From the NCBI RefSeq assembly GCF_032062105.1, contig NW_026933158.1:1-55208 (forward strand): a stretch of DNA of 55,208 bases. The letters run 5' to 3'. The notes under the pieces were generated by a model. The model worked only from the letters and a program-made list of their open reading frames with translations. It was not told the origin of the DNA and made no database searches. The translations under genes were made by a program, and so were the position numbers. This document shows, piece after piece, positions 10,868 to 55,208 of the stretch. Positions within the stretch are counted from its first letter, which is position 1. Every line of letters starts with the position of its first letter. The stretch comes from Saccostrea cucullata (lineage: Eukaryota).

Positions 10868-13800
10868 TTAACTTTGGGGAGAAATCCGGTTGCTAATAGA
10901 ATAAGGTAAAGGTGGAGGTGCTGGACGATTATCCGGTCCCATTTCAGAATATTCATGAGGCAAGTCAGTGGATCCTGCAAAATAAAACAGGTACTCTTAA
11001 AGACTGCGAAATAATTTTGAATTTTAAATAATTACAAGAATTCGAAATCAGTTTAGTGCTTCCTTACGATTCAGCTGAGAATAATTTTTCACAACAGTGG
11101 CTTTCTTTTTTGATGATTTGGCCTTTTCTAGCAATATTTTAGTATTTTTTAATTTTCTAAAATGAAAAAGTAATAATTGAAATTATATTATCACTTAAAA
11201 AAATTAAATATAAACTGATAAATACCTGTCATTGTTAATATTTCACAATTACATCATTTCTTCTTCTTATTGTTTGTTGAATCTCTGTTAATCACAAACA
11301 AATCGTCTATGTAGTTTGAAACGAAATCCTACCTGAACAGAAAAATATTAAACCCAAAAGAGATGAAGAGGATAGCCACACAAACTCCAACAACAGAAAA
11401 AAATGCGATGGAATGTAGACAAATGTTCTCATTAGCCGGTTCTACTACACTGGTACCTTTGAATATATAAATTTTGATTTGAAATTATATAAATAAGAAA
11501 TCCTTCAAATATAAAGAAATAGGTTTTTGATGCCTAGATATCAATCTTTCTATCCATTTCCATGAAAATCTTGCTCAACTTTTTAAACTTATGACAAAAT
11601 GTAATAAAACCCTTCTCTGGTATACATAATTCATGTTAAAAACATTGCATCAATCATGCATAGAACTTAAGAAATGATGACTTTAAACGAGACTGCTGAT
11701 ATCTGTTTATATTCTTTCGACTTCTTTTGAACTATTTTCAGAAGTATTTTCATTGAAAAAGTTATAAGAATAAATATTTAAGTACATAAGTATTTAAGTT
11801 TGGGGTCTCACTTTAGGTCATAACATACAAATGCTAGTATACATAAAACTTGGGAACGAAATAATTGAAAGCACTCTTAACAGAAACTAACCATCAGCAA
11901 AGACGTTGGAACCGGGGGCTTATCCCCTCATTATTTGCAAAGATGGACATAATATAGGCATCAAACATTGGGGTGTGGGTTTATCCCCCCCAACACACAC
12001 ACTTTCAATTTGTTTCCGACGCCAATGACCAGTAAATCATTTCTTATCTATTCTTCTTCAAAACTAGTAATAAAAACTTAGACTTTTGCTTACGGTTGGT
12101 GTGACCGGTTGGCAAGTGATGCTCACTCCTCTAGGACACGTGATCCCACCTCTGCTGTTTTAGAGATCCATTTTTCCTCTGCTCCTGATTGCATTGCTTG
12201 CATATTGTTCGTTATTTCCAATTCTATTTGTTTGAAATAGCTCATTTTGTTCCTCATTTTACTTTAATTGTGGACCTACTTATCATTACTATGGTACTTT
12301 ATAGAACTTATGTAGATATCATATTCCTTACTTGTTTTGTTTATCTATATCAATATCTCTAAGTTTTGTATCTTTTTAACGATTGATTGATTGACTGTAT
12401 ATTGTTTTACGTCCTGTTCGAGAATATTTCACTCATTACCAGTAATGCTACGTTCCCATTGTCGTGCGGTCAGTTACGCACGTCACGATACATCAATCGT
12501 AGTTGATCGCAGAGTTTTTATTGAATTTTATGCCAATATATGAAGTAGGTGTGTTTTCATACGTTTCCTTACGCTTTGATTATGCACATTCTTACTTTCC
12601 AATGTATTATGTCACGAAATTTGTGGACCGATATAATACTTATCATCTAATATGGTACTTTATAGGATCAAGATAGAACATGTACCCAGACAGACATATA
12701 AAAATCATATTCCATTATATTTTATCTATTGAAAATTAAGCTAAACATAAACATACAATCAATAATAATTTAAAGGTTGGTGACAACTTCATAAATGTGA
12801 TGTTTGTAGTGTAACTATGGTCATATGTTATTGCTGTTAAAGTAGAGCAAAAGCAGCAGTATAACTATTTCTTGTTCAGGTTCAGAAGAAGATAGGATCT
12901 CCCCTCTTTCTTTTTTGTACCTGTTTTAGGTGGCATCTTTAAAATATTTTTCTAAAAATCAGACTATCAATCGGTATCAATTTTCCCGTTATTTTTGCAA
13001 GCTTAAGTACTCGTAATATAGCGTGATTGTCCGCAACAAAGCGTTAACACTCGTGTCTAATGGTGTTTCTTACGTCCGTATCAAATCGTCTCTGAGCGGG
13101 ATTGATTGATTGGCTGTATATTGTTTTACGTCCGATGATCACGATATGAAAGCCAGAGAATATTTCATGCTCGATTACCAGTTAAGTAGGGCAAAAAAAA
13201 TTTACGATCAACACGATTCACGAGTGAACACAAGATTTGTTTCGATTTGATACGAGAACTACGATTTGTCCACGGTCGAGTCCCCGATATCAATCGTGGC
13301 GCCAATCGTGATAGTGGGAACATAGCATAAGGGGCTTTACATTTAGACCTTTACTCGACACGAAAGTTTTTTGCTCGACAAAGAGGGTTTTTATGGTTTC
13401 ATCCGAAGGACTCTCAATTTTCACTGCAATGTGCCAAATGTATAGCGATGAAACACTGCATTTTTCTTCGACGCTGATCCAGTTGCGGTCGCAGTTCGAA
13501 CCTACTTTACAAAATAAATATATATTTATTACTTAACAATAAGAAATACATACCAAAAACCTGAACCTCACAAAGTTCAGCAATTGTTGTGTCACGCCGA
13601 GATCCCAATGGAACGACAACTCCGTCGCCGCGTTCGTTATAATATGTGACGTAGCGTCCCCGTTGTGCACACGCATGTTTGGAAAGAAGAGGCGGAAATG
13701 TGTCAGTATTTTTATAACATCGGTAACCATCCTTAAGTTTTGTCGTATTTGATATGAACAGAGAAAATCCTGCATGTTCAGACATACGCAAAGAATCTGA

Positions 13801-14369
13801 AAACAAATAAGAGTGGATAAAACTTCCTTTTCTTATTTTGAAAATCGAAAGATAGTTTTGAATGTCTAAATATAAATCTCGTCAATTTTTGAAGGTATTT
13901 GGTTTTTCTTTTCTCCTTTTTTCTTGGCTCATTTGCATATAAGCGCGTTACAAAGGCTTTATTTACCATTGTTATTACTGTCGTTTCTGTAGAAGACTTT
14001 GATGTTGTAGATTTCTTTGATCTCCCCTAGGTCCACTCTCCACCACACTACACGACCATACCTCGTTCTAGCACAGTTGCTTTCCCTCTGATTTGTGTTT
14101 CCATCCACCGCTAAGTCAGGACCATAAGGGGACTGAACTGAACTCTGCACGGTGCTCATGTTCCATGCAACATTTTCTGTAAAGTTTTTTACGATAAGTA
14201 AATATTACCAAGACTTCTTAGCTGAAATTTGAATAGTAGAAAAATATAATATAGAATTTAGATTTTACCAAACAATATACTTACCAAGTCCATGACAAGA
14301 AAAGGTAAATGCTAAGAAAAAAACCGATAGGATGCTCCATCTTTCAATCAAATAATATTTGGAATTCAT
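10868..14369 (-). CDS. Type-I membrane receptor, 285 aa: signal peptide, F-type-lectin/galactose-binding-like domain (as at the N-terminus of bivalve MEGF10/SCARF-like proteins), TM helix, tyrosine-motif tail
   Basis: Six exons, all GT-AG and in phase: 14369-14285, 14176-13967, 13796-13554, 11456-11333, 11156-11068, 10974-10868 (858 nt). Peptides: MNSKYYLIERWSILSVFFLAFTFSCHGL / ENVAW..QSS..AVDGN..C..T..WWRVDLG..YRND / ..GFSLFIS..C..C..GRYV..ELCEVQVF / ..SIAFFSVVGVCVAILFISFGFNIFLF / RKLK..KNYSQLN / RSTDLPHEYSEM..RPAPPPLPY..QS*. Extra exons in the 2.1-kb intron cannot be excluded. Confidence 0.85.
12085..12220 (+). mobile_element. Penelope-like element 3' fragment inside intron 3 of the receptor gene
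   Basis: ggttggtgtgaccggttggc..gatgctcactcct..acacgtgatcccacctctg..ttgttcgttatttcca. Confidence 0.7.
12383..13510 (-). mobile_element. SINE interrupted by a DNA transposon
   Basis: Tail (ttga)n-tatattgttttacgtcc..gagaatatttcactca at 12383-12445. It resumes at 13331 (ggggct..ggtttcatccgaaggac) and is homologous to the SINEs at 30790 and 52115. Confidence 0.65.
12446..13327. mobile_element. PIF/Harbinger-type non-autonomous element
   Basis: TIRs tgctacgttcccattgtc / gatagtgggaacatagca, with a TAA target duplication at 12443-12445 and 13328-13330. Confidence 0.7.
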
Positions 14370-16025: not shown

Positions 16026-17560
16026 TCAAAGCATTTCTACAAATGTCACCATCTTATTTTTAAACAAGTGAGTTTTTGTTAACTTCAGTAAAATGTCCAT
16101 ATTGTTTTTAATTTTATTTTTTACATAAGAAAGTAACATATCATCTGTTCCAGTTTTGTCCTGAACTCTACAAAACATTTTAAATTTATATATCTTATAC
16201 ATGTACGCTAAGAAAGACACAAAGGTATTTAAAAATTGTATTTTGAAATTCCGTTCAGAATAAAACCTCAAGATAACATTTTTCCACTGTACATCAAAAC
16301 TTAAAACAGAACTCAGACTTTTCCATAAGATTTGAACATGTTCACAATCAAAAAGTAAATGTCTAATATCTTTAATTTTGTCACATATATTACAAAAAAC
16401 AGATGTTCTATATTTGCACTTGAAAAGAAAACTGTTACAACACAATGTATTATATAACAATTTGTAATTAAATTCACATATTCTTTTGTACATAGATGTC
16501 TTTCACTTTGTTTCTATACATACATGTATCCTTCCAGCTCTATCGAGCAACAGAAAATAATTTTTTAAACATTAATTGATATCTTGTAATTTGAAAAATT
16601 GAATTCTTTAAATTTCTTAAAGAGTAAATTATCGTAAAAAAAATTACATTTTTTATCATAAATAAATATACACCATTGATAAAATTAAAATTACCCTTTC
16701 TTTTTTTTGTATGTATGAACAACAAGTCATATTAAATCGTAAGGATTTTTTATAGATTGCCTTTTTTGATATTTTATATTCACACATCCAATTCTGTTTT
16801 CGATCAAAGGACAATTCTTGTAGAGTTTTAAATTTTCCATTTTTGTTTCACAGGTCTTTGACATGTGTTATCCCACTTTTGATGCAATTTTTAAAACATA
16901 TTGTTTTGTTTTAATATTTACAAAATACATTACTCGCATTTGCGTTAGTATTGTTTAAAAAGAAAATCAACATGATATTTCTATTGCTGATGAAGAACAC
17001 CAAATTTCTTACATCTGTCGGATTATCGTGAGAGTTATTTTGGGTAAAAGCATTAATTGGTTCCATGTTTTATCAACAGAATTAACGCCATTTCCATACT
17101 TTATGAACTTTTGAGGTATATTGGTGTTGGTATTGGATTCTTGGGAATAAAGATCAAATATATAAGTTTCGTTTTTTGTTAACTTGTAACAAGTCATCAT
17201 GGTTTAAAATTTTTAAAAAAGTTGATAGCATATGTATAGAATTATACCCCGTTAAATAGCTGGTGTATACATGTGCTCTAACTTGTAAAATAGGTTATTT
17301 GAAGAGTTCTGATTGGTTCGAATTCATGATATAATATAACATACAAATATTCTATTTGAACCTTTCCAATTTCTTTCATATTTTTGTCTTTGTCCATTTC
17401 ATTTTTCTAATTATTGGGGAAAAGTTTCCTTGACATATATCATTCATTCAACGATACAAGATATGCATATGATAAATAGATAGATAGTAAAAGTGCTATC
17501 AATATAACCCTATGATTCATTGCCTGAATATTATGAGACTTAACAATACACACATTTTGA
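16026..17560 (-). mobile_element. Decayed L1/Tx1-type LINE ORF2 3' region
   Basis: ORF 16026-16493 has the zf-RVT-type signature EFNYKLLY..C..C....DIRHLLFDC..VQILW. Broken upstream frames include KSGITHVKDL. The 5' boundary is approximate. Confidence 0.7.
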
Positions 17561-18157
17561 ACAAAGCAGATTTTCTGCTCATTCAGAATTTTGACATAAA
17601 AACACCAATCTCCTGAAAATCATTTTTTTTCTCGTATGGATTTTTTAAAGAAAATTTCGCTATATATCTTTTCTGTAGTTTTATTACATTTTAATTTCTG
17701 AAATACATAAACGTCCTCTTTTCCTGAACTTAAATTTGTGTATGAATTAATAAAGGTTAAATATCGATAACAAACAGCCACGTGAATTCTACGTGATTTA
17801 CTACTCACGATTTTCATCTAAAACGATCCGTTTCTGGTAACATGTTTTCTCAATTTTAATATTAATTTATCTGAGAGTTTTCAAAAATCAAGATATATAA
17901 TCATTATAATTATGTGACATACCTTTCCATATGATTCTTTAAATGACACAATACCTGACATTAATATTATTATTCGTAGTCATTCATTAATCTACATAAA
18001 AAGAAATGTTTAATAATTTGAAACTGATAATTAAGCAGTAAGAATGATTAGTTAATAATTCATGAAAGATATACATTGTGTATTGAATCTTTTCTAGAAA
18101 ATGAAATAAAGTGAAGAATTGAGCTTCAGTTGAGCTGCAGATAAAAGTGCTGATTGG

Positions 18158-18775
18158 AACTTTTCAATCATCAATTTTCCTTACTTATGCAGCGGTATAC
18201 CTTCATCACCTGCTTACGAGGTTTTTATCCTAAGTTGATTCGATACGCAAGAGCATGCTCTACTTATCAACAATTTCTAAAGGAGATAAATCATTGACAA
18301 ACAAGTTGCTGAAACAAAAATATCAACAGGTTATTTTAAAGTCATCATTTTGTTAGATCTATGGTCGATACAATGACCTTGTCAGCCAAATACAATTTAT
18401 CAGTAAGTCATATGGTGATTGAAGTTTTTGTAACAGTAATTTTTAGACAATTTCTAACACTGAATTGACGACGGATTTTCCCGTTTTTTCCCGATTATAA
18501 CAGAAGTACAAGGCGGGTGAGATCGGTCGACAGGGGATGCTCACTCCTCAATGACACCTGATCCCATCACTAATATTTTGGAGGTTCTTATATCCTCTGC
18601 TTTTATTCTGTATTTTTTAATGTACTTCTGAGCTTGAATACTGTTCATCTGAGGTGCGATTAGGCGCCATTAAGAAGTAGACATCTCCTGCCAAATGGTC
18701 ACACCAGCGGTGTAATCCTTGTCATGATCGGAAACTAACGGGAAAATCTGACGAAAATTCGGTGTGTAAATAATT
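18158..18775 (+). mobile_element. Penelope-like element 3' fragment joined tail-to-tail to an inverted piece (18651-18775)
   Basis: NFSIINFPYLCSGIPSSPAY..LIRYARACSTY..YGRYNDLV, then the 3' motif, immediately followed by a reverse-complemented, more diverged 3' motif. Confidence 0.8.
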
Positions 18776-19892: not shown

Positions 19893-20647
19893 TCAGGATC
19901 CCACTGGAATTAAATGATCACAGTTTGAAATAAATTTCAATGAAAATTTCACGTTGTGAATCAGTTTTAAGTATTTAGATTTCAATTTTGGGTTTGACAT
20001 TAGATCTTCAGGGCTGAGCCAATTATCTATATCATTCATCTGGTATTTTGACAATTTTAGTACAGTCATTATTCTCTCCTGTCGCAACAAGATGGCGGGC
20101 AGATTGGCCTACATTGTCCACAACGTTGAAATCACTTCCGTCTTTGATAAGGTATTCGGCTAATTTGAAATTACCATCCTCCACAGCTATCAGTAAGGGA
20201 GTTTTTCAAGAGTTGTCGTTTTTGTTCACGTCTGCCCCTGAGAAAAAAATATAACTTGAAAATGTTCTCTACCTCTGATTTACTAAACATCATATCTTAA
20301 ATATACAAATCAACTTAATATTGCTTTTCAAATAAATATTTTGATCCTTTTATGTGATATCGTTAAAAACTGATTTTGTTAACTTTTCACCATGTCCATA
20401 TTGTTCATTTCAATTGCAACCATTAGTGCAGTTCTACCATCGTCATTCATCATATTGACGTCAGCGAAGGGTAGGAGACCCGTCAGAGTATCCATATCAC
20501 CATAAATGATATGGGTAAATATCATAGGTTCTCCATTTTCATCCAGAACGTTAACATTGGTTCCAGATTTAATTTTCGTTTGGACTGCAGTGATGTCTCC
20601 GTTGAAAACTGCTTCATAAGGAAAGAGATAGAGTTTGAAGCATTTAT
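19893..20647 (-). pseudogene. ANK-1, ankyrin-repeat pseudogene
   Basis: Homologous to the other copies, but the start ATG is ATA (20647-20645), there is a 1-nt deletion after FLM, the exon-1 splice donor is missing, the LFNCGY codons are deleted, the TATA box is mutated and the 3'UTR hairpin loop is deleted. Confidence 0.85.
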
Positions 20648-22586
20648 TTTGTTAAGTTCGATTCAACTGATAGTCAATGACTGTACTGATAAATATTTTG
20701 TCAACCTTTTAAGATATCCTAATGTAACTTGATTAACATACCAATACCTCTTTCAAAGACATTCCCTGTATCCTATTGGTCGACACAACACATTAAAGTA
20801 AAGAGAGAGAAATTCTCATTTGCTACAGGATTTATCCTTCGGTAGACCACAATGTGTAAACAAATTTAATGTACATTTTCCTTGACTTGTCAAAGAAGAT
20901 GAGTTTTTCACTTCATAAATTTGACAGAAGAGGGGTTTTACAACGAAGTGAAACATATATTCCAACTAAAATAATTAATTCAAGGAATCATACAGGAATA
21001 AAAAAAAATAACTTGATATTTACTTTGTTTATTAAACCAGTTTCCTTTTTGAGAGAATAGCCATTGGAACAGGCAATAAAATTGCTATTTGCTAGAGGAA
21101 AGCAACCAAATTATTTGTTCTAAAATTTGTAGATTACTTGATTGAACAAATAAATTTATTTAGTTTACGTTTTATTGATTTGTTTTTTTTATCTGCTTTA
21201 CTTATCAATTTTTTTTTCGAAGAACAATGAAGGGAAAGTAATACTTATTAAAACTACTTACCCCGGGTTAATTGATTCCATTTTTTTTCTTTACTCTTCA
21301 GCCTTGTTCTTCTGTGAGATTGTTATTAAAATAATTTAAAATTGGTGTCAACAAAATAAATTTAGTTACTTTCGTGGGGAAACTCTACAATTACAAAAAT
21401 TGCTCAACGATAATTATTTTGTCAAGTACGTTGTATCATACAGACAAACTTTTTGTCATTGGCAACTTATTTTTTCTTTACTATTTTATTTCTCAATTTT
21501 AATATTACCTTATACTGTTTATGGTACCGCGTGATTTAATGGTATAATTATCTTATCTGAGAGTTCAAAATCAAGACATACAATCATCGAATAACGTGAC
21601 TTACTACTTCATATGACTACTTAAATGTCACAATATCTGACAATAATTGCTCTTATTATTAAGCAGTACAAATGATTTGTTAATAATTCAAGAAAGATAA
21701 ACTAAACTTTCACAAGAAAAAGAACAAAACTTGAAGAGCTGACTCAAATTGTAAGAAAACAATCTTCTATAGTATTACGATTATATACGTGCATATTCAA
21801 TAATATATGCTAATCCACAATCAAACATTTGTGAGACATAAAACCACTGACTACGTACGTATGTCATTATGCACATACCTTGATAAAAATCTCTTTTAAT
21901 CTTTAAGTATTGCAAATTTTCCGAAAGTTTTACAAGCTGTAAATGTATTTTAAAAATAGGAATGTTTCTTTGTTGATTTTGTACATTAACTTCATATAGA
22001 AATCCGGATATATTTTAACAATTGTTGAGTTGGGTATCACACATTGATGATTTAGATCATAACTCATTAATGCTATTAATAATAAATTTGAGACATGGAC
22101 AAAAACGAAAAATATAGTTTATATTGCTTTTTTTATGTACTGTTAAATGGATGTGTAAATAAATACATCCAATATGAATGCAAATGTAAAACAATAATAA
22201 AAACCAAAAAGTTCTTATTGTTTTCAGCATAGTTTTATTCATGGTTTTTTATTAAAGTGAAAATAATTCTCTCAGATAATCACAGGCTCCTAATAAGTAC
22301 TTCTGGCTTTTGTTCACACAGGTATTAGGTTTTAACATTACTCCTGTTTGCTATATTTTGATACATGTACATTCACGTTCTTAGAAAATGAAACCTCTGT
22401 TTCTAGTAACTCCTTTGTAATCTTCATTTTATATATGGATGCTACATGCTCAGTCTTAGTTTCCTCTCTGATCGGAACTCATACCAGTCGCATATTTTTC
22501 TTTACTGTGATACCTCATCATGTAAAGAAACATTTCGTATCTATCTGCAAAGGTACAGATTGGCTATTATATCAAAGAAATTGTAT

Positions 22587-23369
22587 TCAGGGTACCACTG
22601 GAATTATATGATCACAATTTGAAATAGCCTTCAGTGACGTTTTCACTTTGTGAATCAGTTTTAAATATTTAGATTTAAATTTTGGGTTGGACATTACATC
22701 TTCCGGGCTGAGCCAATTGTCTATATCCTTCATCTGGTAACCACAGTTAAAAAGTATTTTGACAATTTTTGTACAGTCATTATGTTCTCCTGTTGCCACA
22801 AGATGGAGGGCAGATTGACCAAGGTCGTCCACAACGTTGACGTCACTTCCGTGCTTGATCAGGTATTCTGCAATTTTAAAATTACCACCCTCCAAAGCTA
22901 TCAGTATGGCAGTTTTTCCAGAGTTGTCTTTTTTGTTCACGTCTGCTCCTGAAAAAAATAATATGATTTTAAAATTTGTTCCACCGGTATCTATGCTATA
23001 CTTAACATCATATTTAAAAAAAAAATATTAAATAGCTTTCGAAATAAATATTTTGATCTTCGTATATAAGTGAATTTTTAAAAACTTACCTGATTTCACG
23101 ATCTTTTTCACCATGTCCATATCGTTCATTTCGACTGCAACCATTAAAAGTGTTCTACCATCATCATTCGTCATGCTGGTATCAGCATAGGGTAGGAGAA
23201 CCTTAAGAGTATCCATATCACCATTAACGATTGGGATAAATATCAGAGGTTCTCCATTTTCATCCAGAACGTTAACATTGGTTCCAGATTTTATTATCTT
23301 TTGGAGTGCAGTGGTGTCTCCATTGTAAACTGCTTCCATAAGGAAAGAGATAGAGATAGAAGCATTCAT
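22587..23369 (-). CDS. ANK-2, ankyrin-repeat-only protein, 213 aa (no promoter of its own)
   Basis: Exons 23369-23090 and 22948-22587 with a phase-1 GT-AG intron. About 5 ANK repeats (NGEPLIF, DGRTLLM, SGKTAIL, LGQSALH). Confidence 0.85.
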
Positions 23370-24114
23370 TTTATTAAGTTTGTTTCAAGTAATTGTTTGT
23401 GAATCAGTTTTAAATATTTAGATTTAAATTTTGGGTTGGACATCAGATCTTCCGGGCTGAGCCAATTGTCTATATCCTTCATCTGGTAACCACAGTTAAA
23501 AAGTATTTTGACAATTTTTGTACTGTCATTATTCTTTCCAGTTGCCACAAGATGGAGGGCAGATTGACCAAGATCATCCACAACGTTGACGTCACTTCCG
23601 TGTTTGATCAGGTATTCTGCAATTTTAAAAGTGCCACCCTCCAAAGCTATCAGTAAGGGAGTTTTTCCAGAGTTGTCGTTTTTGTTCACGTCTGCTCCTG
23701 AAAAAAATATAATCTAAAAATGTATTCTACTGGTATCTATGCTATACTTAAAACCATTTATTAAAAAAAATCACCTTATTACAGCTTTTGAAATAAATAT
23801 TTTGACAATCGTATACAATTTTTTGAAAACCTACCTGATTTCATTATCCTTTTCACCATGTCCATATCGTTCATTTCAACTGCAACCATTAAAACTGTTC
23901 TACCATCATCATTCGTCATGTTGGTATCAGCATAGGGTAGGAGTACCTTTAGAGTATCCATACCACCATTAATGATTGGGGTAAATATCAGAGGTTCTCC
24001 ATTTTCATCCAGAACGTTAACATTGGCTCCAGATTTTATTATCCTTTGGAGTGCAGTGGTGTCTCCTTTGTAAACTGCTTTCATAAGGAAAGAGATAGAG
24101 CTAGAAACATTCAT
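23366..24114 (-). CDS. ANK-3, ankyrin-repeat protein, 203 aa, with its C-terminus replaced at a deletion junction
   Basis: Exons 24114-23835 and 23697-23366. Ends ..KLIHK|QLLETNLIK*, where the last 9 aa come from the ANK-2 5'UTR. Confidence 0.8.
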
Positions 24115-24177: not shown

Positions 24178-24430
24178 CTTTTATACGTCTAATCTAATCT
24201 CATTAATATACCAATAACTCTTTCAAAGACATTCTCTGAATCCTATTGGTCGACACAATACCTTGAACTACACAGAGAGAGAAATTCATTTGCTGCAAGA
24301 TTTATCCCTCGGCAGACCACAATTTGTAAAAAATAAATTTACATTTTCCTTGAGTTGTCAAAAAATGAGATTTTTACTTTCATCAATCTGACAAGAGAAA
24401 TTGAGTTTTATAATGAGGTGAAACATATAT
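24178..24430 (-). promoter_or_regulatory. ANK-3 proximal promoter module
   Basis: TATAAAAG (24178-24185), CCAAT, ATTTGCT, GACCACA (24315-24321), TTCCTTGA and GTGAAAC, all shared with the paralogues. Confidence 0.6.
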
Positions 24431-25428
24431 TCCAATTAAACGAATGATACAATGAATCATACAGGAATAAAAAAAATTAATCACTTTATTTATTGGACCG
24501 GTTTTCGTCTCTTTTTTTTTTAGAGAATAGCCAATGGTACACGCAAAAAATTGCAGTTATCGAGTGAAAAGTAATTCGCTTGTTCTAAAGTTAATAAATT
24601 TATTGATTAAACAAATACATCTGTTTTGTTTACTGTTTAATGATTTGTTTGTTTTTTTTTAAATCTGTATTTCTAATCAATTTCTTTTTTAAAGAAGAAC
24701 AATGAAATTTTATTTGAGGAAAATTTATACTTATTAATTCTATCACACCGGGTACATCCAATACACTCATTATACCCTCCAGCCTTGTTCTTCTGTGAGA
24801 CTGAATTAAAATTATTCAGGATTTGTGTCAACAACAAAATTAGTTACTGAACTTGGGAAATATTACAATAAAAATGTTCAACTAATATTATTTTGCCAAT
24901 TACTTAGAATCACTTGAACAATTCAACCGGATTACTTTTTAAATTTTAAATATATCTGAACATGAAATCTTTGGATATTCACTTTCTTCCTCATATTGTA
25001 TTATATTTGTATTTGCTTATGTTCAACTTATTAAGCACGGGAAATTCATAGAAGAAATTCATGCTCTTTAAATCCTACTGAACTTGAAATAAGATTTAAT
25101 ACAGTCTGACACACATGTTTTTATTTGAAAATGTAACGACAAAATATTTTTGGTAGAATAGCATGATAACTTCAACAATTTATAATTTTTTCTTATTTAT
25201 ATAGTAAAATACAATTAAAAGTTGCATTTGCGGTTATACAAGTTTTTTTTCATACAGACAAGTGCTAAAACATGAAAAATTACACATAATAAATTAATTA
25301 TACAGTTTTATTAACAATCTAGTTTCTACTTAAAAAGTTCCAATTCTGTATTCTATAGGGCCGATTTCAAGATTTTTGTAGATTGCTATTTATAATTCCA
25401 AGATTTTCTGTTTATTTACATGACTAAT

Positions 25429-26103
25429 GTAAAGTAATGTCCCTAAATACAAAAATTTCACCAAAATACAATGGAGGAGATATCAAAAATACAGATTATT
25501 TTACATACCTGGGAAGTGTGGTAACACCAGATAGCGGAGCTGACAAGGACAAAATATCAAGATTAGGTAAAGTCAGAGGAGCCTTTGTCAAGCTTAAGAA
25601 TATATGGAAGTCAAGCAACATAAGCAGACATACTAAGATCAAATTGTATAATAGCTGTATACTATCTGTCCTAATGTATGGTGCTGAAAGCTGGAGGTTG
25701 ACTGAAAGTGACATTAAGATGCTATCAAGTTTTCATAATGGGTGCCTCAGAAAGATCTTGAGGATATTTTGGCCAACAAAAATAACCAACAAAAATTTGT
25801 ATGAAACAACCAAAACAACAGACATGAGGACTTTACTAATAAAATACAGATGGAGGTGGATAGGCCATGTCTTGAGAAAGCCCACAAATGACATCATAAG
25901 AGTGGCACTTAGATGGACCCTAGAAGGGAAGAGGAGGAAAGGCTGACAAAAACAACGTGGGGGCGAACAGTAGAGAAAGAGTTTAAGGAGATAAATCTTA
26001 CCTGGGGAGAGATGGAGAAGATAGCTAAGAATAGAGAGGAATGGAAATGCCTAATCCTACATGTAGCCCTATGTGCCTCCGGGTGCAATAAGGACTAGGT
26101 AGG
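25429..26103 (+). mobile_element. 5'-truncated RTE-clade LINE with target-site duplication
   Basis: FTYLGS..SRLGKVRGAF..TKIKLYNSCILSVLMYGAESW..RWRWIGHVLR..KTTW, a (TAGG)2 tail, and a 12-bp TSD tacatg(a/t)ctaat at 25417-25428 and 26104-26115. Confidence 0.92.
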
Positions 26104-26675: not shown

Positions 26676-28768
26676 TCAAGGTAAAACAAATAGTGTCAAT
26701 CACTAAGTGCTCTTTCCATGCATGTTCAATCATAAATAACATATTATAAGAGATATTTGTGAAAAGTAAGTCTAATTCGCGTCAGAAAGTGTTCATTCTA
26801 ATCTACATCATCCATGCAAATTTCGATTTAATTATGGCTAATATTCACTCATTCGCAGAATGAAGGTGTGATACAGCATCCAATGTAGAAGTGTCAATCC
26901 ATCATCATGTTTGTTCTAGATAGAGGTTATAGTTACTAGAGAATAGAACTGCTCCAAAAACTTTCATCCTGGTTATACTCATCTAGAAAATGCAAATCAA
27001 CTTCAGCATCCGAAGCAAATTTGGTAGTGGCTGTCCATTAGATGCATCCTCATCTTTATATATGTACATTTTAGACAAATGAAAGAGTTCTCATTTGTAA
27101 ATGCTATAAAATGACCTACCGGTGTGCTATGTGTACACGTTTTAGATTTGCTACTATTTGTGTCTTTGTCGACCACAATATTGTGGAACAATTTATCTCA
27201 CATAAAAGATATGCATTGAAATGATAAATAATTAGTAACAACGACATAATCTCGTGATTCATTTTTTTCTTGATTTTGCTTGCCTGAAGTTAATGAGACG
27301 TTTTTATTTTTCATGTTTAAATGTTTGTTTCTAAGCTAACTAACATTTAAACATGAAAAAAAAAACAGCCGCCTAAAATTATTTTTTGTTAGAAAATTGT
27401 CATTTCCACAAATATATCTAGTATTTCTTTACAAAACGCAAGTTTTGTTGTAAATAAATAGCTGTATATGAAATAACGTATATTCAGTACGTGTATATTA
27501 CATTAACACAAACGTGTTGGCATTGACTACTCACGATTTTCTACTATTTTTTCCCCTCAATTTCAATATTGACTTATACTGTTTATGGTACCGCGTGTTT
27601 TAATGGTGTTATTATTTTATCTAACAGTTTTCACAAAAATCAAGATATATAATCATAGAATGATTTGTCTTACCTTTTCATATGACTGTTTTCATATAAC
27701 TGTTTTGATGTCACAATATCTGACATTTATTATTCGTAGTCATTCATTGATCTGCATGAAAAGAAATATTCAATGATTTCTCTGATTATTAAGCAGTACA
27801 AATGATTTGTTAATGATTCAAGAAAGATATATATTTCAATTTTCAGAAGAAAAAGAACAAAACTTGAAGAACTGAACTGACTGAAATTCTACAGTATTAC
27901 TATTATATACGTTCATATTTAATAATGAAGGATATGGAGATAACGAACAGTATTCAAAATGAAAGCCCATAAAACAATACAAAAAAGGAGCTGATAATAT
28001 AAGCTAATCTACAATCAAACATTTGCATGACATAAAACCGCCGACTACGTATTTCGTTATGCACATTCATTGAAAAAAATTCTTTTAATCTTTAAGTACT
28101 GCAAATTTTCCGAAAGTTTTACAAGTTGTAAATGTATTTTAAAAGTAGGAAAATTCTTTTCACAGTTTCTTTGTTGACTTTGTACATTAACTTCATATAG
28201 AATATTATATATATTATTTAGCAATTGTTGAGGTGGGGATGATACATAGATGATTTAGACCATAACTCATCTATGCTGCATTTGAGACACGGACAAGAAC
28301 GAGGAATATAGTTTATGTGACTTTTTCATGTACTGTTAAATGGATGTGTAAATAGATACATGCAATGTGAATGCAAAGGTGAAAACAATAATAAAAACCA
28401 AAAAGTTCTTATTGTTTTCAGCATAGTTTTATTCATGGTATATCATTTACGTGAAAATAGTTCTCTCAGATAATCACAGGCTCCTAATGAGTACTTATGG
28501 CTTTTGTTCAAACAGGTATTATTTTCAACATGACTCCTGATTACTATATTCTGATACATGTACATTCACGTTCGCAGAAAATGAAAGCTCTGCTTCTGGT
28601 GACTCCTTTGTAATCTTCATTTATTACATGAATGCTACATGCTCAGTCTTAGTTCCCTCTCTGATCGGAACTCGTATTTTTCTTTACCGTGATATTTCAT
28701 CATGTAAAGAAACATTTCGTATTTATCTGCAAAGGTACAGATTGGCTATTATATCAAAGAAATTGTAT

Positions 28769-29548
28769 TCAGGATCCAACTGGAATTATATGATCACAAT
28801 TTGAAATAGCCTTCAGTGACGTTTTCACTTTGTGGATCAGTTTATAATATTTAGATTTCAATTTCCGGTTAGATATTAGGTCTTCCGGGCTGAGCCAATT
28901 GTCTATATCCTTCATCTGGTATCCACAGTTAAAAAGTATTTTGACAATTTTAGTACAGTCATTATGTTCTCCTGTTGCCACAAGATGGAGGGCAGATTGA
29001 CCAAGGTCGTCCACAACGTTGACGTCACTTCCGTGCTTGATCAGGTATTCTGCAATTTTAAAATTACCACCCTCCAAAGCTATCAGTATGGCAGTTTTTC
29101 CAGAGTTGTCTTTTTTGTTCACGTCTGCTCCTGAAAAAAATAATATGATTTTAAAATTTGTTCCACCGGTATCTATGCTATACTTAACATCATATTTAAA
29201 AAAATATTAAATAGCTTTTGAAATAAATATTTTGATCCTCGTATATATGTGAATTTTTAAAAACCTACCTGATTTCACGATCTTTTTCACCATGTCCATA
29301 TCGTTCATTTCGACTGCAACCATTAAAAGTGTTCTACCATCATCATTCGTCATGCTGGTATCAGCATAGGGTAGGAGAACCTTAAGAGTATCCATATCAC
29401 CATTAACGATTGGGATAAATATCAGAGGTTCTCCATTTTCATCCAGAACGTTAACATTGCTTCCAGATTTTATTATCTTTTGAAGTGCAGTGGTGTCTCC
29501 ATTGTAAACTGCTTCCATAAGGAAAGAGATAGAGATAGAAACATTCAT
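28769..29548 (-). CDS. ANK-4, ankyrin-repeat-only protein, 213 aa
   Basis: Exons 29548-29269 and 29130-28769, phase-1 GT-AG intron, intact frame. Confidence 0.9.
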
Positions 29549-30126: not shown

Positions 30127-30592
30127 TACTTATTAATTCTAATAAAAGCCCATCCAAACTATAAACGTTTCAAACATCTTCTCCTGTGAGATTGCTATTA
30201 AAATTATTTAAGATTGTGGTAGTTATCTAGATTTTTTAGATTAACTGCCGAGATCCATGTTTAATTTACACAGGTAGTCAAAGCTCCCCTTGACGAATGC
30301 TATCTGTACATAAGGCAAATCTCATATCATATTTTTCTAATTTGTTTACATCCCCATGATCAATATCCATGAGAAGTTTTGTTTAAGTAGGATGTATCAT
30401 TACTTTAGAAACGAATCTTTTCAAAAAACGTTTACCCTTTTACAAATCAATAAACGTTTGGTCGGATTCCGTATCCAGAGCATGTAAGATAGGATCAAAC
30501 ACTAAATGCACCATTCATGCAAGTTTAATCATAAATATCATAACAGACATTTTTTGTAAATAAGGTCCCATTCGAGTCACAAAGTATGGAAC

Positions 30593-30720
30593 ATATGGAG
30601 ATTACGAACAGTATTGAAGATCAAAAGTCCATAAAACAATACAAAATAGGAGTAGAGCAAACAAAGACCTCGAAAATATTAGAGGTGGATCATGCACCAT
30701 GGAGGAGTGAGCATCCCTGC
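30593..30720 (-). mobile_element. Penelope-like element 3' terminus
   Basis: tatggagattacgaacagtatt..agaggtggatc..ccatggaggagtgagcatccctgc. Confidence 0.75.
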
Positions 30721-33614: not shown

Positions 33615-34419
33615 TCAGGATCCCACTGGAATTATACGGTCACAATTTGAAATAGCCCTCAGTGACACTTTCACTTTGTGGATCAGTTTTAAATATTTAG
33701 TTTTCAATTTTGGGTTGGACATAAGATCTTCAGGGCTGAGCCAATTATCTATATCCTTCATCTGGTATCCACAGTTAAAAAGTATTTTGACAATTCTAGT
33801 ACAGTCATTATTTTCTCCTGTTGCCACAAGATGGAGAGCAGATTGACCAAGGTCATCCACAACGTTGACGTCACTTCCGTGTTTGATCAAGTATTCTGCA
33901 ATTTTGAAATTGCCGTCCTCCAAAGCTATCAGTAAGGGAGTTTTTCCAGAGTTGTCTTTCATGTTTACGCCTGAACCTGAAAAATAAATGTAAAGATTTT
34001 TTTGAAAAAAAATATTTCTCTGATGCTTCACTGAAATTCAAATCTAAAAGTCAAAAAATCTACATCTTATAGTTTTAGAAATAAATATTTGAATCATCTT
34101 TTGTGATATCTTTGAAAATTTTGAATCTATAAAACCTACCTGATTTGATTAATGTTTTCACCATGTCTATATCGTTCATTTCAACAGCAACCATAAGAGC
34201 TGTTTTGTAATCATCATTCGTCATGTTGACGTCAGAGTAGGGTAGGAGAACCTTAAGAGTATCCATATCACCATTGACGATTGGGGTAAATATCAGAGGT
34301 TCTCCATTTTCATCCAGAACGTTAACTTTGGTTCCAGATTTTATTATCTTTTGGAGTGCAGTGGTGTCTCCATTGTAAACTGCTTCCATAAGGTAAGAGA
34401 TAGAGGTAAAAACATTCAT
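33615..34419 (-). CDS. ANK-5, ankyrin-repeat-only protein, 213 aa
   Basis: Exons 34419-34140 and 33976-33615, phase-1 GT-AG intron, intact frame. Confidence 0.9.
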
Positions 34420-48063: not shown

Positions 48064-48172
48064 ATATGGAGATAACAAACAGTATTCAAGCTCAAAAGTG
48101 CATAAAACAATACAAAATAGGAAGGGAGCAAACACGGGCCTCCAAAACTTCAAAGGTGGGATGAGGTGCCAT
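48064..48172 (-). mobile_element. Penelope-like element 3' terminus
   Basis: atatggagataacaaacagtattcaagctcaaaag..ggtgggatgaggtgccat. Confidence 0.75.
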
Positions 48173-48689
48173 CCAAACTAAGTGTTCAACAATTTTTTAT
48201 GAAACATCTTAATTGACTTCTGGGATTTCATTCTACATGATCAATACATAGACCTAGTGGGGGTGGTGACTGCTATTAGGGATAACTACTACTCCTAAGC
48301 TTCTGATATCACCTCATAAATCTAGCACTCAAATATAACAGAATACCTTCAGGATAGTAAATAAGTTTATTTTATCGATAGATAAGAGATTAAATGGCTT
48401 GTTAAATGCTTTAAACATTTTGGTTCTATTAATTTAAGGAACAATGGGTAATATTAGTATATGAGTGCAGTTTATAATAATAAATAACATTATATAGTAA
48501 AAATGTTTTATATATTATATAAATGAAGAATATTAAATGAATATAGTTATTATATTATTATTATAGTTATTAAACGTATATAGTTATGCATAAATAGTAC
48601 TTTATTACATGTTTATAGTTTTTGACACATTATTTTTATATACATATGTACATATTTGTTTCATACTAGTATTTGGATATTTCACTTGA

Positions 48690-49200
48690 AAAAGACGCTA
48701 ACAAGCTCTATAAACGTAATGACTTTAACTTTTCTATCGTCAACTTCCCTTACTTATGCAGCAATATACCTTCATTACCTGCATACGGAGTTTATTTGTC
48801 TTCGATAAGCAAGAGCATGCTTCACGAATGAACAATTTCTTAAACGAGGTAAATTATTGACAAAAATGCTGATAAAACAAGAATTTCAGCAGTCTCGTTT
48901 AAAGTCATTATTTCGTAAGTTCTATGGTCGATACAATGACCTTGTCAACAAATACATTGAGTCAAATGTTAACTGACGTTTTTCATACTTATTGTTAGGC
49001 CATTATATATACACTGAATTGACGATCGCTTTTTCCCAATCATGACAAGGAGCACAAGGTGGGTGTGACCGGTCGGCAGGGGAGCTCACTCTTACATGAC
49101 ACCCGATCCCACCACTGATGTTCTTGAGATCCTGTTTGCTCTGCTCCTATCTTGTATTGTTTTGTGGACTTTTGATCTTCCATACTCTTCGTTATCTCCA
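48690..49200 (+). mobile_element. Penelope-like element 3' fragment
   Basis: KRNDFNFSIVNFPYLCSNIPSLPAYGVY..RLKSLFRKFYGRYNDLVNKY, then the 3' motif and the terminus ttcgttatctcca. Confidence 0.85.
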
Positions 49201-51429
49201 AATATTTTATTATATGATTAAAACTAATATAATATCTTCAACACAGTTTTTTTTTTCTTATCTTAGGAAAAGATAAAGCAATCAATAAGTTTACTTTTCA
49301 TTATCAATTTCAGTACCCTCACTGGTAGGCAATTGGCACCTCTGATAGATCGATACAATGTTTTATATTATTGTTACATGGAAGAACTCTAATTTCCGCC
49401 TCAATTCTTATAAACTTTACAAGCCCATAACTCGCGTAAACTATATAAGCAGTTTTCTGAATTTGACAATAATGAAATCGCTTTACTTTCTGATGCTTAC
49501 ACTCTAAAACAATAGTATATTACCCAAAACTTTTGATTATTAGTTAAACCCATCAGAAAAATGTAGTGTTAACTGAGGAGGGACTCAACTGAATTCCTAT
49601 TTTCATTGCTTTCTTTGTATGAAATTTTTAAAAATATTTTTAAATAGGCAATCACAGGGTACGTTTTTAGAAATAAGTGTCATTGTTGTTTTTTCTATCA
49701 TTATTTTTCTTTTTAGGTACATTTGTCCAGTAAAAATATTTAAAATATAATAAATCATATTTCTGTCACTTCATAAAGTACAAAACTGAGGTTTGATCAT
49801 TATTATCTCATTTTTTTCTCTTCTTCTACGAGAAACAATTAAAAAGATAGCAAGTATGAAAACTAAAAGAAATTTATTTACGACAAACTCAGTAATCAAA
49901 TGCAACACAGATTTACTATGCCCTCTGTATTTTTTCCATCGCAAAAATAAAATTTTTGTTTTGAAAGGCAGATGGCTCATCTGGTTGGCTGATACTTAAA
50001 CAAAATCTAAAGTGAAACTTATTTTTTACGCTAAACATTTTATGTGTCGGGGGACCACAACTGAATGAATCCTTGTAAAAAGTTTCCTTTGTATGTCAAT
50101 CAAATGAGTTTTCTTCCTTGCATGAACAAGATAAATTATGCTAATGAGCATGAAAAATATTTAATTATATTTTGAATTTCTCATTAGTAAAATAATTATC
50201 TGATACATTGTAATATACAATAATAATGTGATTCTCATCTCATTTCTTGCAAAAGTTATATAATGTAATATATCCATAACATGAAGAGCTATTTTAAGGT
50301 AAACATAGTCTAAATTAAACATTTTTTTAAAAAACAAAGAGATAGGTAATATAATGAGCCTTATACATTGAAATTAGTCATTAATAATATTGAGTGATGG
50401 TTGGTCAATTAGTTTTTGTAGCATACAACGTGGTATACTCAAATTAATAAAGAAAATGAATCTGTCATGTCAGTTTCGATTGTGTATTTAAAAGCTTCAT
50501 TTAAAAACTTACAATGCTTAAAAACGAAATGTAAAACTGCAAAAATTTATTAATTTATTTTTCAAATATTAACACGTATAAATGAATTTTTTTTTAATGA
50601 CAAATCCTTGTCTGAATTTTAAATATTCTATTACCTCAGTTACTGGAATAATTCTTCACTTATGAAGACTGACTTATTTTTAATTGGAATTATAAAAAAA
50701 AAATCTATTCAAAACTGAAGATAAAAAAATATATGAATCTGTATTATTTCTGGTGGCTCCTGAAAAAGAATATAAAAATCTTAAGTTCATTTTCTTTTCA
50801 ATATTTTTGCTTATTATCAAAATTGTATATTGCAGATTTCCTGTTCTAAATTCATATTAAATTTTCCCCAATTTCTTTTTTCCTTTTAATTTTTTTATTC
50901 AATTAGCAAAATTGTTTATTGCATTTTCATATTCTAGATATAATCAGTCTGAATGTTAGACCTAAAATAATAATAATTTCGTAAAAATTCTGCATTATAT
51001 GCTGACAATTTCTCCATGTATTTCTTATTGATTTATTATTAAACTAATTTAAAGGTTTTTTTTTAATTAATCTATCGTCAATTCTCCATATTTATTGAAA
51101 ATATACCACTTTCATTTTCGTTTGATGTTAAAATGCTAAATTATAATATAATTGAATGCTAATTATTTTTGCAAAAGTGGCCAGATTTTTGAAGTCAAAT
51201 CAAAATTTCTTAACCTTTTACTTGTGCTTGAAAGTTGAATTTCAGGACTCTTAGAGCTTGTAGTTTAGCCGTAAAAGGAAGCTTAACTCCAGCACGTCCA
51301 ATCTTGAAAATAAATGCCATGAGTTACAGTTCTTGCAATAAAGAATCGGAGGGAAAAACTAAATTCTAGATTTAATTCATGCTGGCCATGTAATTTCCTA
51401 TATAATTTTTGGAAAAAATGTATTTTAAA

Positions 51430-51931
51430 ATTCAATTTCCCTTATTTATGCAGCAATACAAATTTCATCACCTGCATATGCATATGGGGTTTATATCTCT
51501 CAGCTATTTCACTACCAAAGAGCATGTTCTACGTATGAACAATTTTAAAAAGAGGAAAGTTACTGACAAACCAGTTTAAGGAACAAAAATATCAACAGTC
51601 TCGTTTTAACTTATCATATCTCAAGTTCTTTGTTTCTTTCGATACAATAATCTTGTAAGCAAAACTTTTAATCAATAAGTCAAATGCTGATTGACGTTGT
51701 TCATAATTTATTGTTAGGCCAGTATGTACACACAGAGTTGTCGACAGAATTTTTTTTATTTCCCGATCATGACAAGGAGCATACGGCGGGTGTGACCGGT
51801 CGGCAGAGAATAGTCATTCCTCCATGGCACTTGTTCACACTTCTGATATTTTGGAGGTCCGTGATTGCTCTGCTCCAATTTTGAATTGTTTAAGGGAATT
51901 TTGAGCTTGAAAATTCTTTATTACCTCCATT
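51430..51931 (+). mobile_element. Penelope-like element 3' fragment
   Basis: NFPYLCSN..SPAY..GVYISQL plus ggcgggtgtgaccggtcggcag. Confidence 0.8.
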
Positions 51932-52114
51932 TATTTCATTTCATAAAGTTGTTTCACTGCACCACAATTAAATTTCAGACCTTCAATTCACAACAGAATA
52001 CCGGATGATACGAATGCCAATAGCATATCCTATTCATGCCGAATTGCTCGGAAACAGAAAAAGTTTATCTTTTTAATCAATGTGCAAGCTATCTTTTCTC
52101 ACAAGTATCAATAG

Positions 52115-53614: not shown

Positions 53615-54000
53615 TATGACTTCAACAATCAACTTCCCTAAACTTATGAAGCAATATACCCTTGTCGCTTGCATATGGCATTTATATATCTCAGTTGATA
53701 TATCTAACGTATGAACACTATGTAATACAAGTTTTTACAAGTTGATGAAACAAGAGCATGTTTAACGTATGAACAATATCTACAATACTTTATAAGCAAT
53801 ATAGTTTTTGACAAAACAAAAGCCATTGTTTACATGCTGAACTGTCTACGGATTTTCAGTTTTTTCGAGCATGACAAGGAGCATACAGCGGGTGTGACCG
53901 GTCAGCAGGAGATGCTCACTCCTCCATGGTCCCTGTTTGCTCTGCTACTATTTTGTAATGTTTATTGGACGTTTTAGCTCGAATACTGTTCGTTATCTCC
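53615..54000 (+). mobile_element. Penelope-like element 3' fragment, internally deleted
   Basis: INFP.L.SNIP..AYGIYISQLI, then gcgggtgtgaccggtcagcaggagatgctcactcctccatgg and gaatactgttcgttatctcc. Confidence 0.8.
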
Positions 54001-55208
54001 AGAAACTTCATCATTGATCATTATTGTCCCTTATTACACTGTTTGTTTTCCATTAATCTCTGTTTTTATGAAAAAAGATTCATTCCTTATAATTTAATTA
54101 CAGTGCAGACAAAACATTAAAAAATTTTAAAATAACGCCAAGAGTAATACGTTTTTTGACGTAACTCATTATTATCATCTTTTATCCAATCAAATGACGT
54201 GTTACAAGTGAAATTAAATTATTCATTATTATCACTTTGGTATCGAATGCACATATGAACAATAAAGTATATTGGTAACGAATATTGATAACATTGATAA
54301 TACGACGTCCATTCTGTGAACGAGGTTGGAATGCATAAATCCTTTTATAACATACATATTAATCGACCTTATACATTTTTCTCATTGATACAATTCATAA
54401 ACAGGTCAAAAATTCGAATACCTAGTTCAAGACCTGAGACCAAATATCTAGGAGGTGTAACCACCCCCTCCAGTAGCACTATCTGTGTGTTATCTGCGCT
54501 GTATGCAGTCTTTAATTATCAAATAAATAATAATAATAACAAGTTGCTGTCCTTTAAAAAAGTACTGCAATACGTGGACCATATGCATGTTTTTCTAATC
54601 GAAGTTCAATTTAGAAATTTTCTAGGTGTAGTGAATATTCATGTAGGTTTGTTCACATTTTCCGCAATGATCTGCGTACTTATTACTGATTGTAGTCTCA
54701 AATCAAAATTGTTAAACTTTATCTCCGATTAGCGGCCTTTACTTTAGTTTTGTCAGTTTCAAAAATCGGGCTATTTTGATACATGTAACTCCTAATGGCT
54801 GGGACTTGACACCTGTTCTGGATTTATGCGGAAGAAATCTATCAGGGGAAAAATAGAGATCTGATGGTTCACGTGTATCAGAGCTCTGTAGCAAGCAGAT
54901 TTTTTTGTCGGACCCCCCCCCCCCCCCACACACACACACATTAAAAGCCGTTGCTATTTATAGACTTCTATCAAACGGTATTGGATTGCTGAAGAAAAGA
55001 AAAAAAAATATTTTGCGAGCCTTGATGCACAAAACTCATGCCGGTGAAAATCTTTTAAAAGCTAGAACTAGTCGTCGAAGGACGTTTTTCATTCAAGTTG
55101 TTATAAGTTACATGTACATGTGTATCTATATACTGCAAGTTCTTCCTACTTTTTAAAGTGCTTGTACCATAGAATCAAAGTTTAGTGTTTCGGTGTTGAT
55201 GATGGTGA

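Follow-up and report, generated by a model that had tools for sequence, protein, structure and literature searches.

Stop-start overlap between two tandem ankyrin-repeat genes of the oyster Saccostrea cucullata, likely a by-product of a rearrangement that is itself probably young

On a contig of the oyster Saccostrea cucullata, two neighbouring ankyrin-repeat genes touch in such a way that the stop codon of the first (ANK-3) shares nucleotides with the start codon that opens the second (ANK-2). This raises the question of whether ribosomes pass from one frame to the other at the overlap or whether a rearrangement simply happened to end there. A sequence-only reading had described a deletion-born unit in which ANK-2 can be expressed only from a dicistronic mRNA. 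Analysis of the window (one whole, AT-rich contig of 55,208 nt) indicates that the feature is most probably the outcome of an ordinary rearrangement, a young one, within a gene array subject to conversion. Its resemblance to AUGA stop-restart systems is one of geometry only; the TURBS, CASQ2 and frameshift features that we tested fail. No report of this locus, or of such an overlap between tandem animal paralogues, was found in searches of open-access papers.

The window carries seven ankyrin-repeat paralogues, all head-to-tail on the minus strand, six of them intact and one broken (Table 1). In each, the first coding exon measures 280 nt and there is a single short intron. The broken copy, ANK-1, has lost its start codon and its splice donor and bears two 1-nt deletions (frameshifts), an internal stop and a 17-nt deletion. 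Pfam ankyrin families are matched, PF12796 at 101 bits and above cut-off, and the AlphaFold2 model of ANK-2 has five helix pairs (pLDDT 88-96 over residues 11-130) and a last helix (182-205) of low confidence. A SOCS-box identity for the C-terminus was dropped, as Pfam reports no SOCS box. Protein searches with the exon 2 products of ANK-2 and ANK-3 found relatives from Saccostrea echinata, Ostrea edulis and one species of Crassostrea, and in a 13-protein tree ANK-2 to ANK-5 form one clade (support 100/99) that contains no S. echinata or O. edulis member. Oyster ankyrin proteins named ankycorbin-like or RF_0381-like in NCBI models belong to the same family; these names are automatic, and we saw no tested function for those models. 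NCBI annotates ANK-3 as a 'partial' model of 182 aa and ANK-2 as a separate 213-aa gene.

Birth-and-death evolution with gene conversion is a known pattern in tandem gene arrays. The present array shares with it the head-to-tail copies, the one pseudogene, the mosaic members and the lineage-limited clade. Unlike such arrays in general, the ANK-3/ANK-2 join happens to leave two touching open frames. ANK-4 shows a cluster of derived changes at codons 178-189 (e.g. ISNRKL..YY) that is absent from ANK-2, ANK-3 and ANK-5 (22779-22644 versus 28961-28829).

Table 1. Positions of the ankyrin paralogues and of the parts of the ANK-3/ANK-2 unit in the window.
Feature	Position	Strand	Description
ANK-1	19893..20647	-	broken paralogue
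ANK-4	28769..29548	-	intact 213-aa paralogue; the 5' 620 nt of ANK-2 are near-identical to it
ANK-5	33615..34419	-	intact 213-aa paralogue
ANK-6	39526..40253	-	intact 207-aa paralogue
ANK-7	46632..47386	-	intact 213-aa paralogue
ANK-3 TATAAAA box	24179..24185	-	71 nt before ATG, a position shared with ANK-4 and ANK-5
ANK-3 exon 1, coding part	23835..24114	-	280 nt; ATG at 24114
ANK-3 intron	23698..23834	-	137 nt, GT-AG
ANK-3 exon 2 to codon 194	23396..23697	-	open frame
TATTTAAA in ANK-3 coding sequence	23409..23416	-	47 nt before ANK-2 ATG; possible cryptic TATA
Non-homologous join	23395..23396	-	ANK-3 codon 194 to ANK-4-type leader at -26; 2-nt exact microhomology (AA)
Leader remnant (26 nt) plus ATGA	23366..23395	-	read as new ANK-3 tail QLLETNLIK-stop
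TGA in ANK-2 frame	23385..23387	-	18 nt before ANK-2 ATG; common to ANK-3, -4 and -5 leaders
AATAAA	23370..23375	-	due to T at 23373; candidate new poly(A) signal for ANK-3
ATGA overlap	23366..23369	-	ANK-2 start ATG 23369-23367, ANK-3 stop TGA 23368-23366
ANK-2 exon 1, coding part	23090..23369	-	3 differences from ANK-4
ANK-2 intron	22949..23089	-	141 nt, GT-AG; 4/138 sites differ from ANK-4
ANK-2 exon 2, coding part and stop	22587..22948	-	open frame
ANK-4-type to ANK-3-type switch in ANK-2	22770..22775	-	codons 152-153
ANK-3-type tract of ANK-2	22647..22770	-	of 125 nt, 2 differences from ANK-3 and 12 from ANK-4
Family-conserved AATAAA	22234..22239	-	about 350 nt after ANK-2 stop, then T/GT-rich tract; likely normal poly(A) signal

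The stop-on-start overlap is present in the sequence as first described, and the join, which had been put near 23395, lies at 23396/23395; its 23-nt junction sequence occurs once in the window. Both frames are open and all four splice sites are GT/AG, again in agreement with the earlier reading. On the minus strand the ANK-3 frame ends CAC AAA / CAA TTA CTT GAA ACA AAC TTA ATA AAA TGA, with the slash marking the join. Residues 195-213 are thereby replaced by nine new ones, giving a 203-aa product (194 + 9) with 19 codons fewer of its own than the 213-aa paralogues, whilst ANK-2 encodes 213 aa. The 26-nt ANK-2 leader is without the TATAAAA (-71) and TCAGTA (-46) elements present in ANK-4 and ANK-5; the family core promoter has been lost from ANK-2, and the TATAAAA box of ANK-3 is the likely promoter of the whole unit. 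The earlier claim of 19 missing codons and a leader of about 25 nt is thus borne out, but the accompanying claim that a 3'UTR, a spacer and a promoter had been 'removed' goes beyond what the sequence holds.

The overlap itself does not serve as evidence of translational coupling, since it is inherited from the start context of the family. As the second codon opens with A, ATGA is the start of all six intact paralogues. The frame that ANK-3 now reads has no stop over 29 nt of the ANK-4 leader itself, and therefore no adjustment was needed. If the break falls at a codon boundary, 9 of 29 possible donor points within the final 29 nt of the ANK-4 leader produce the overlap, and 9/45 when the whole leader is counted. 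Of the three frames that could enter at the actual donor point, one terminates at the ATGA; the remaining two meet a stop no more than 18 nt upstream. The overlap is no more than expected by chance, that chance being about 1 in 3, and with every intact paralogue beginning ATGA it is likely an accident of the rearrangement.

ANK-2 is a mosaic, ANK-4-like and then ANK-3-like. With six private sites and one three-way site set aside, there are 70 sites where it matches only one of the two; it follows ANK-4 at 55/58 above 22775 and ANK-3 at 11/12 below 22770, and a single switch point gives a maximum chi-square of 46.5 (0/20,000 permutations). Differences amount to 9/621 from ANK-4 (1.4%) and 2/125 from ANK-3 (1.6%), with two non-synonymous changes and one synonymous change in codons 1-151. 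These counts suggest that the rearrangement is likely young. With three coding changes in a young event, the intact ANK-2 frame says nothing on selection.

We slightly prefer an origin by template switching, to which we would give an even chance. Copying would have passed from ANK-3 codon 194 to the ANK-4 leader and returned to exon 2 of ANK-3 around codon 152, for a net gain of 749 bp. The distal flank of ANK-2 differs from ANK-4 at 50/292 sites (17.1%), equal to the level between ANK-3 and ANK-4 themselves (52/299 or 17.4% upstream, 22/131 or 16.8% in the intron), which fits such a gain. FoSTeS/MMBIR events, as described in the pertinent parts of the PLP1 series (PMC6902434), are alike in the non-homologous join and possibly also in the short microhomology and in a segment copied, with more than one switch, from a nearby locus. 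In contrast to them, the present join has only 2 exact nt, the return switch falls in homologous sequence, and deletion with conversion gives the same end state. Set against the microhomology and microhomeology criteria in those parts of PMC6902434, the imperfect match around the join is not beyond chance, being reached by 217/3,000 random pairs.

The term 'deletion-born' claims more than the sequence shows; a deletion is quite possible, and the mosaic fits either origin about as well. A separate ANK-2, sister to ANK-4, would have lost its promoter together with the ANK-3 end and the spacer, with conversion then making the mosaic; this concerns origin only and is compatible with the other readings below. 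In keeping with a deletion, the nearer 760 nt of the ANK-2 3' flank differs from ANK-4 at 31/335 sites (UTR, 9.3%) and 46/425 (beyond, 10.8%), closer than ANK-3 is to ANK-4 upstream or in the intron, and two private bases lie within the 26-nt leader. The UTR now behind ANK-2 bears an 11-nt insert (22494-22484). A 523-nt transcript contig (run X2) likewise carries an ANK-2-type UTR, ungapped relative to ANK-2 and with the ANK-2 base at 5/7 listed ANK-2/ANK-4 UTR differences, together with ANK-4-type bases at 22677, 22740 and 22770 among the differences listed. However, a deletion must be supplemented by further conversion events, the two tracts are as young as each other, and ANK-4-type bases reach within 7 nt of the join. 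The distal flank also stands 17.1% from ANK-4, and synonymous divergence of ANK-3 from ANK-4 over codons 1-151 is itself only 10.9%.

As to what the unit makes, gene structure suggests that ANK-3 probably yields a 203-aa protein and that ANK-2 is a promoterless passenger, likely untranslated to a useful level. Transcripts would start at the ANK-3 promoter, and ribosomes would make the five-repeat protein, its last helix cut short, and then recycle. Two fates of the message can be envisaged. It may, as one possible course, run on to the poly(A) signal at 22239; such a read-through message would be structurally dicistronic, with a spliced intron in a 3'UTR of about 1,000 nt after the ANK-3 stop, and a predicted substrate of nonsense-mediated decay (NMD). 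As stated in the relevant part of PMC6173133, NMD in its exon-junction mode applies where an exon junction lies at least 50 nt downstream of the stop. With read-through, 276 nt separate the ANK-3 stop from the ANK-2 exon junction downstream of it, so by this rule the caveat already attached to this unit, that it could be an NMD target, would hold for that message. The literature searched contained nothing on NMD in oysters, judged by titles and the openings of abstracts.

Alternatively, and somewhat doubtfully, the message would be cut just after the new AATAAA at 23375 and carry one gene only. The T at 23373 is private to ANK-2 (C in ANK-1, -3 and -4; G in ANK-5) and makes AATAAA across the last ANK-3 codons. 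Only 3/2,247 single changes could create the hexamer within -30 to +60 of the new stop, so that P = 0.008-0.015 for 6-11 changes, a post hoc figure that assumes uniform mutation and ignores AT bias. The hexamer occurs at 2.1 per kb on the minus strand, and downstream of the new site lies a TC-rich tract, whereas the family site has a T/GT-rich one. On the account given in part of PMC5071671, an upstream poly(A) site can moreover be suppressed by a 5' splice site that lies downstream of it. The TC-rich tract, the hexamer frequency and the downstream donor together favour read-through over a cut at 23375. The AATAAA at 23375-23370 is thus a possible compensatory poly(A) signal, a lead rather than a result. 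Because this signal, exon skipping and a TATA-like site each offer another route, the claim that ANK-2 can be expressed only from a dicistronic mRNA does not follow.

Transcript contigs bear on some of these routes. A run search listed 20 runs (best share of words 0.20), and contigs of five (X1, X2, X3, X5 and X10; three samples) were compared; these come from other animals, partly another organism by label. The X1 and X2 contigs, from one sample with the doubtful label DNA but spliced, show exact splicing at both introns (joints 22947-23089 and 23696-23834), and X1 includes an ANK-3-specific spliced contig with 1 difference in 157 nt. The ankyrin family and an ANK-3 allele are therefore transcribed in some animal. 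Run X2 has a contig with the ANK-2-type 3'UTR, so the locus of that UTR is transcribed in at least one other animal. Among the contigs listed for the five runs from other animals, none bridges 23396, which we count neither for nor against the join. Contig cover is absent from 22857-23407 in X1, from 23408-23958 in X2 and X3, and from 23365-23435 in X1 and X2; among the pieces listed, an X10 contig has a loose end at 23390 and reads as an ordinary leader.

If splicing passed from the ANK-3 donor at 23835 to the ANK-2 acceptor at 22948, the unit would be one gene for a normal 213-aa protein, with this form enriched by NMD of the two-intron form. The C-terminal ANK-2 peptides named in the earlier reading would be made by this form as well; Ala3 and Thr30 mark the N-terminal peptide of ANK-2 itself. 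Skipping the 608-nt composite exon indeed leaves an open 213-aa frame, the two acceptors are near-identical and the middle exon is long. Short introns are likely to be defined across the intron. Those here are short (137 and 141 nt), so likely intron-defined, and the ANK-3-specific X1 contig uses the near acceptor, though that animal may lack the join; we regard exon skipping as improbable. In a separate 175-nt contig of X1 (at 23696 and 23089), exon 1 is of the ANK-2/ANK-4 type and is followed by the start of an ANK-3-like exon 2 (1 difference/46 nt). Its geometry is that of a 608-nt back-splice of the composite exon, but would arise equally if a different mosaic paralogue or allele were spliced normally.

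The join could itself be an artefact of a fragmented assembly, in which a read was chimeric or two haplotypes were fused. The 55,208-nt window is an entire contig, and ANK-6 has a twin, differing at 2/207 residues, on another contig (25,548 nt) from this species; the collapse of haplotypes is thus likely incomplete. The 1.4% between ANK-2 and ANK-4 could also be allelic. Assemblers tend to err inside long repeats. This join, however, is non-homologous with 2-nt microhomology, and ANK-2 has six bases found in neither ANK-3 nor ANK-4, as well as its own 3' flank, which makes mis-assembly distinctly unlikely. Independent sequence across the join was found in none of the listed run contigs of other animals, metagenome contigs or protein searches. 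The exact junction 23-mer had 0 matches in metagenome contigs, a search uninformative for oyster sequence. With ANK-3 exon 2 (63-202 aa range, which stops just short of 203-aa proteins), one of 14 protein matches was close, namely the 182-aa model of the window itself, the next best being 69%. Among the proteins shown by a search spanning 80-256 aa there was no 203-aa ANK-3-type protein, and a weak search for a doubled oyster member found none among 5 matches of 374-2000 aa from 1,250 candidates. The ANK-6 twin is likely the other haplotype, and its contig may carry another arrangement of the array.

Termination at UGA followed by reinitiation at the overlapping AUG of a dicistronic mRNA, with both proteins made, is very unlikely. 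The earlier reading had pointed to an AUGA geometry used for termination-reinitiation, and the geometry does hold. Parts of PMC10275272 describe TURBS systems (caliciviruses, influenza B BM2) with the same AUGA, in which an out-of-frame stop and start share nucleotides after a long ORF, and give the spacing as stop and restart codons out of frame within about 20 nt; the out-of-frame ATGA at 23369-23366 has this spacing, and the ANK-2 AUG has A at -3. According to the same parts, ribosomes that have translated a long ORF usually require additional elements to reinitiate. The TURBS core is UGGGA held in a stem, with motif 1 upstream of the overlap (PMC5972666, in part). No TGGGA, GGGA or TGGG occurs in 24200-23366, and the upstream sequence shows no motif 2/2* stem (z -0.36 for 100 nt and -0.23 for 60 nt; minimum free energy against 200 shuffles each). 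Unlike caliciviruses and BM2, ANK-3/ANK-2 has neither a UGGGA core nor significant structure, is nuclear and spliced, and has an overlap accounted for by inheritance of the start context.

Victorivirus AUGA reinitiation has a pseudoknot in the 32 nt upstream; here the 60 nt upstream reach only -1.2 kcal/mol in ViennaRNA, which does not fold pseudoknots. SART1-type reinitiation requires RNA structure downstream of the overlap; downstream folding here gives z -1.0 (71 nt) and z -1.5 (101 nt), 200 shuffles each, in the same sequence as the ANK-4 coding start. Cellular coupled reinitiation (human CASQ2, mouse embryonic GAD), on the account in part of PMC5972666, resembles the present unit in that the ORFs of a cellular mRNA overlap. 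For CASQ2 an Asp-rich C-terminus is required, and the downstream protein is about 82-fold less abundant than the upstream one; for GAD there is a putative TURBS. The ANK-3 tail has neither, with no Asp in its last 19 residues, and unlike both cases the second ORF is a whole paralogue. Bacterial translational coupling needs a prokaryotic host and a polycistronic operon, neither of which fits an oyster contig whose introns are spliced. For leaky scanning to reach the ANK-2 AUG, ribosomes would have to bypass all 22 AUGs that precede it in the spliced message.

In favour of stop-restart, both frames and the splice sites are intact, and U1 at the ANK-2 donor could prevent the message from ending at 23375 (PMC5071671, in part). 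PMC5972666 also lists, in the part concerned, TURBS-free reinitiation in 5/24 human transcripts tested in Gould 2014 and in pneumo-, victori- and hypoviruses; the missing motif therefore leaves low-level reinitiation possible. Against this stand the chance-level geometry, the missing signals, the NMD rule as given in part of PMC6173133 and the little need for a second product, near-identical ANK-4 being intact with its own promoter. A bolder form, in which one rearrangement made a spliced AUGA dicistron that escapes NMD and reinitiates TURBS-free on a full-length paralogue, an operon at birth, is a long shot.

Less likely still, TATTTAAA in the last ANK-3 codons could act as a cryptic promoter and start a one-gene ANK-2 message with a short leader. 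The octamer lies 47 nt before the ATG and would give a leader of about 20 nt, but it is ordinary coding sequence that also occurs in ANK-2 exon 2, there is no Inr-like match, and the upstream blocks conserved in other copies (families D8, D17 and D18) are missing.

Programmed -1 frameshifting depends on an X XXY YYZ heptamer with an open -1 frame beyond it, and although ANK-2 lies in the -1 frame of ANK-3 and the last codon, AAA, could re-pair at -1, the suggested fusion of about ten repeats is barely credible, since both heptamers (23435 and 23414) precede the TGA at 23387-23385 that closes the ANK-2 frame, no heptamer lies downstream and no significant structure follows.

Were ANK-2 translated, the locus would offer something rare among animals, stop-restart that yields two full-length proteins from a single spliced mRNA. 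Its origin could be dated, and ANK-4, 6 kb away, would serve as a near-identical control with one gene. An operon at birth would show that one step is enough to create stop-restart coupling out of the ordinary start context of a family. On the likelier reading, an ordinary young rearrangement within a fast-turning gene array, the locus has value as a natural reporter of junction-dependent NMD in oysters, of background reinitiation at an unselected AUGA and of whether one base, by making the AATAAA at 23375, has supplied a compensatory poly(A) signal.

The remainder of the window holds other features. An F5/8 type C domain exon (galactose-binding, fucolectin-like; PF00754, PF22633) lies at 13959-14204 (-), likely with more exons near 13500-13880. 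The ANK-4/ANK-3 spacer contains a 172-aa frame with DUF6451 (25428-25946, +), which we take to be the tail of a non-LTR retroelement ORF. Elsewhere, a 158-aa Cys-containing frame at 16026-16502 (-), without a Pfam match at E 0.001, resembles a mobile-element remnant. High-copy interspersed repeats occur on both strands at 1112-1563, 4909-5175, 9011-9254, 18141-18774, 27925-27990, 30586-30717, 48061-49234, 51432-51942 and 53822-54018, several of them with very high contig depth, and a short repeat piece near 27930-27990 interrupts the ANK-4 3' flank.
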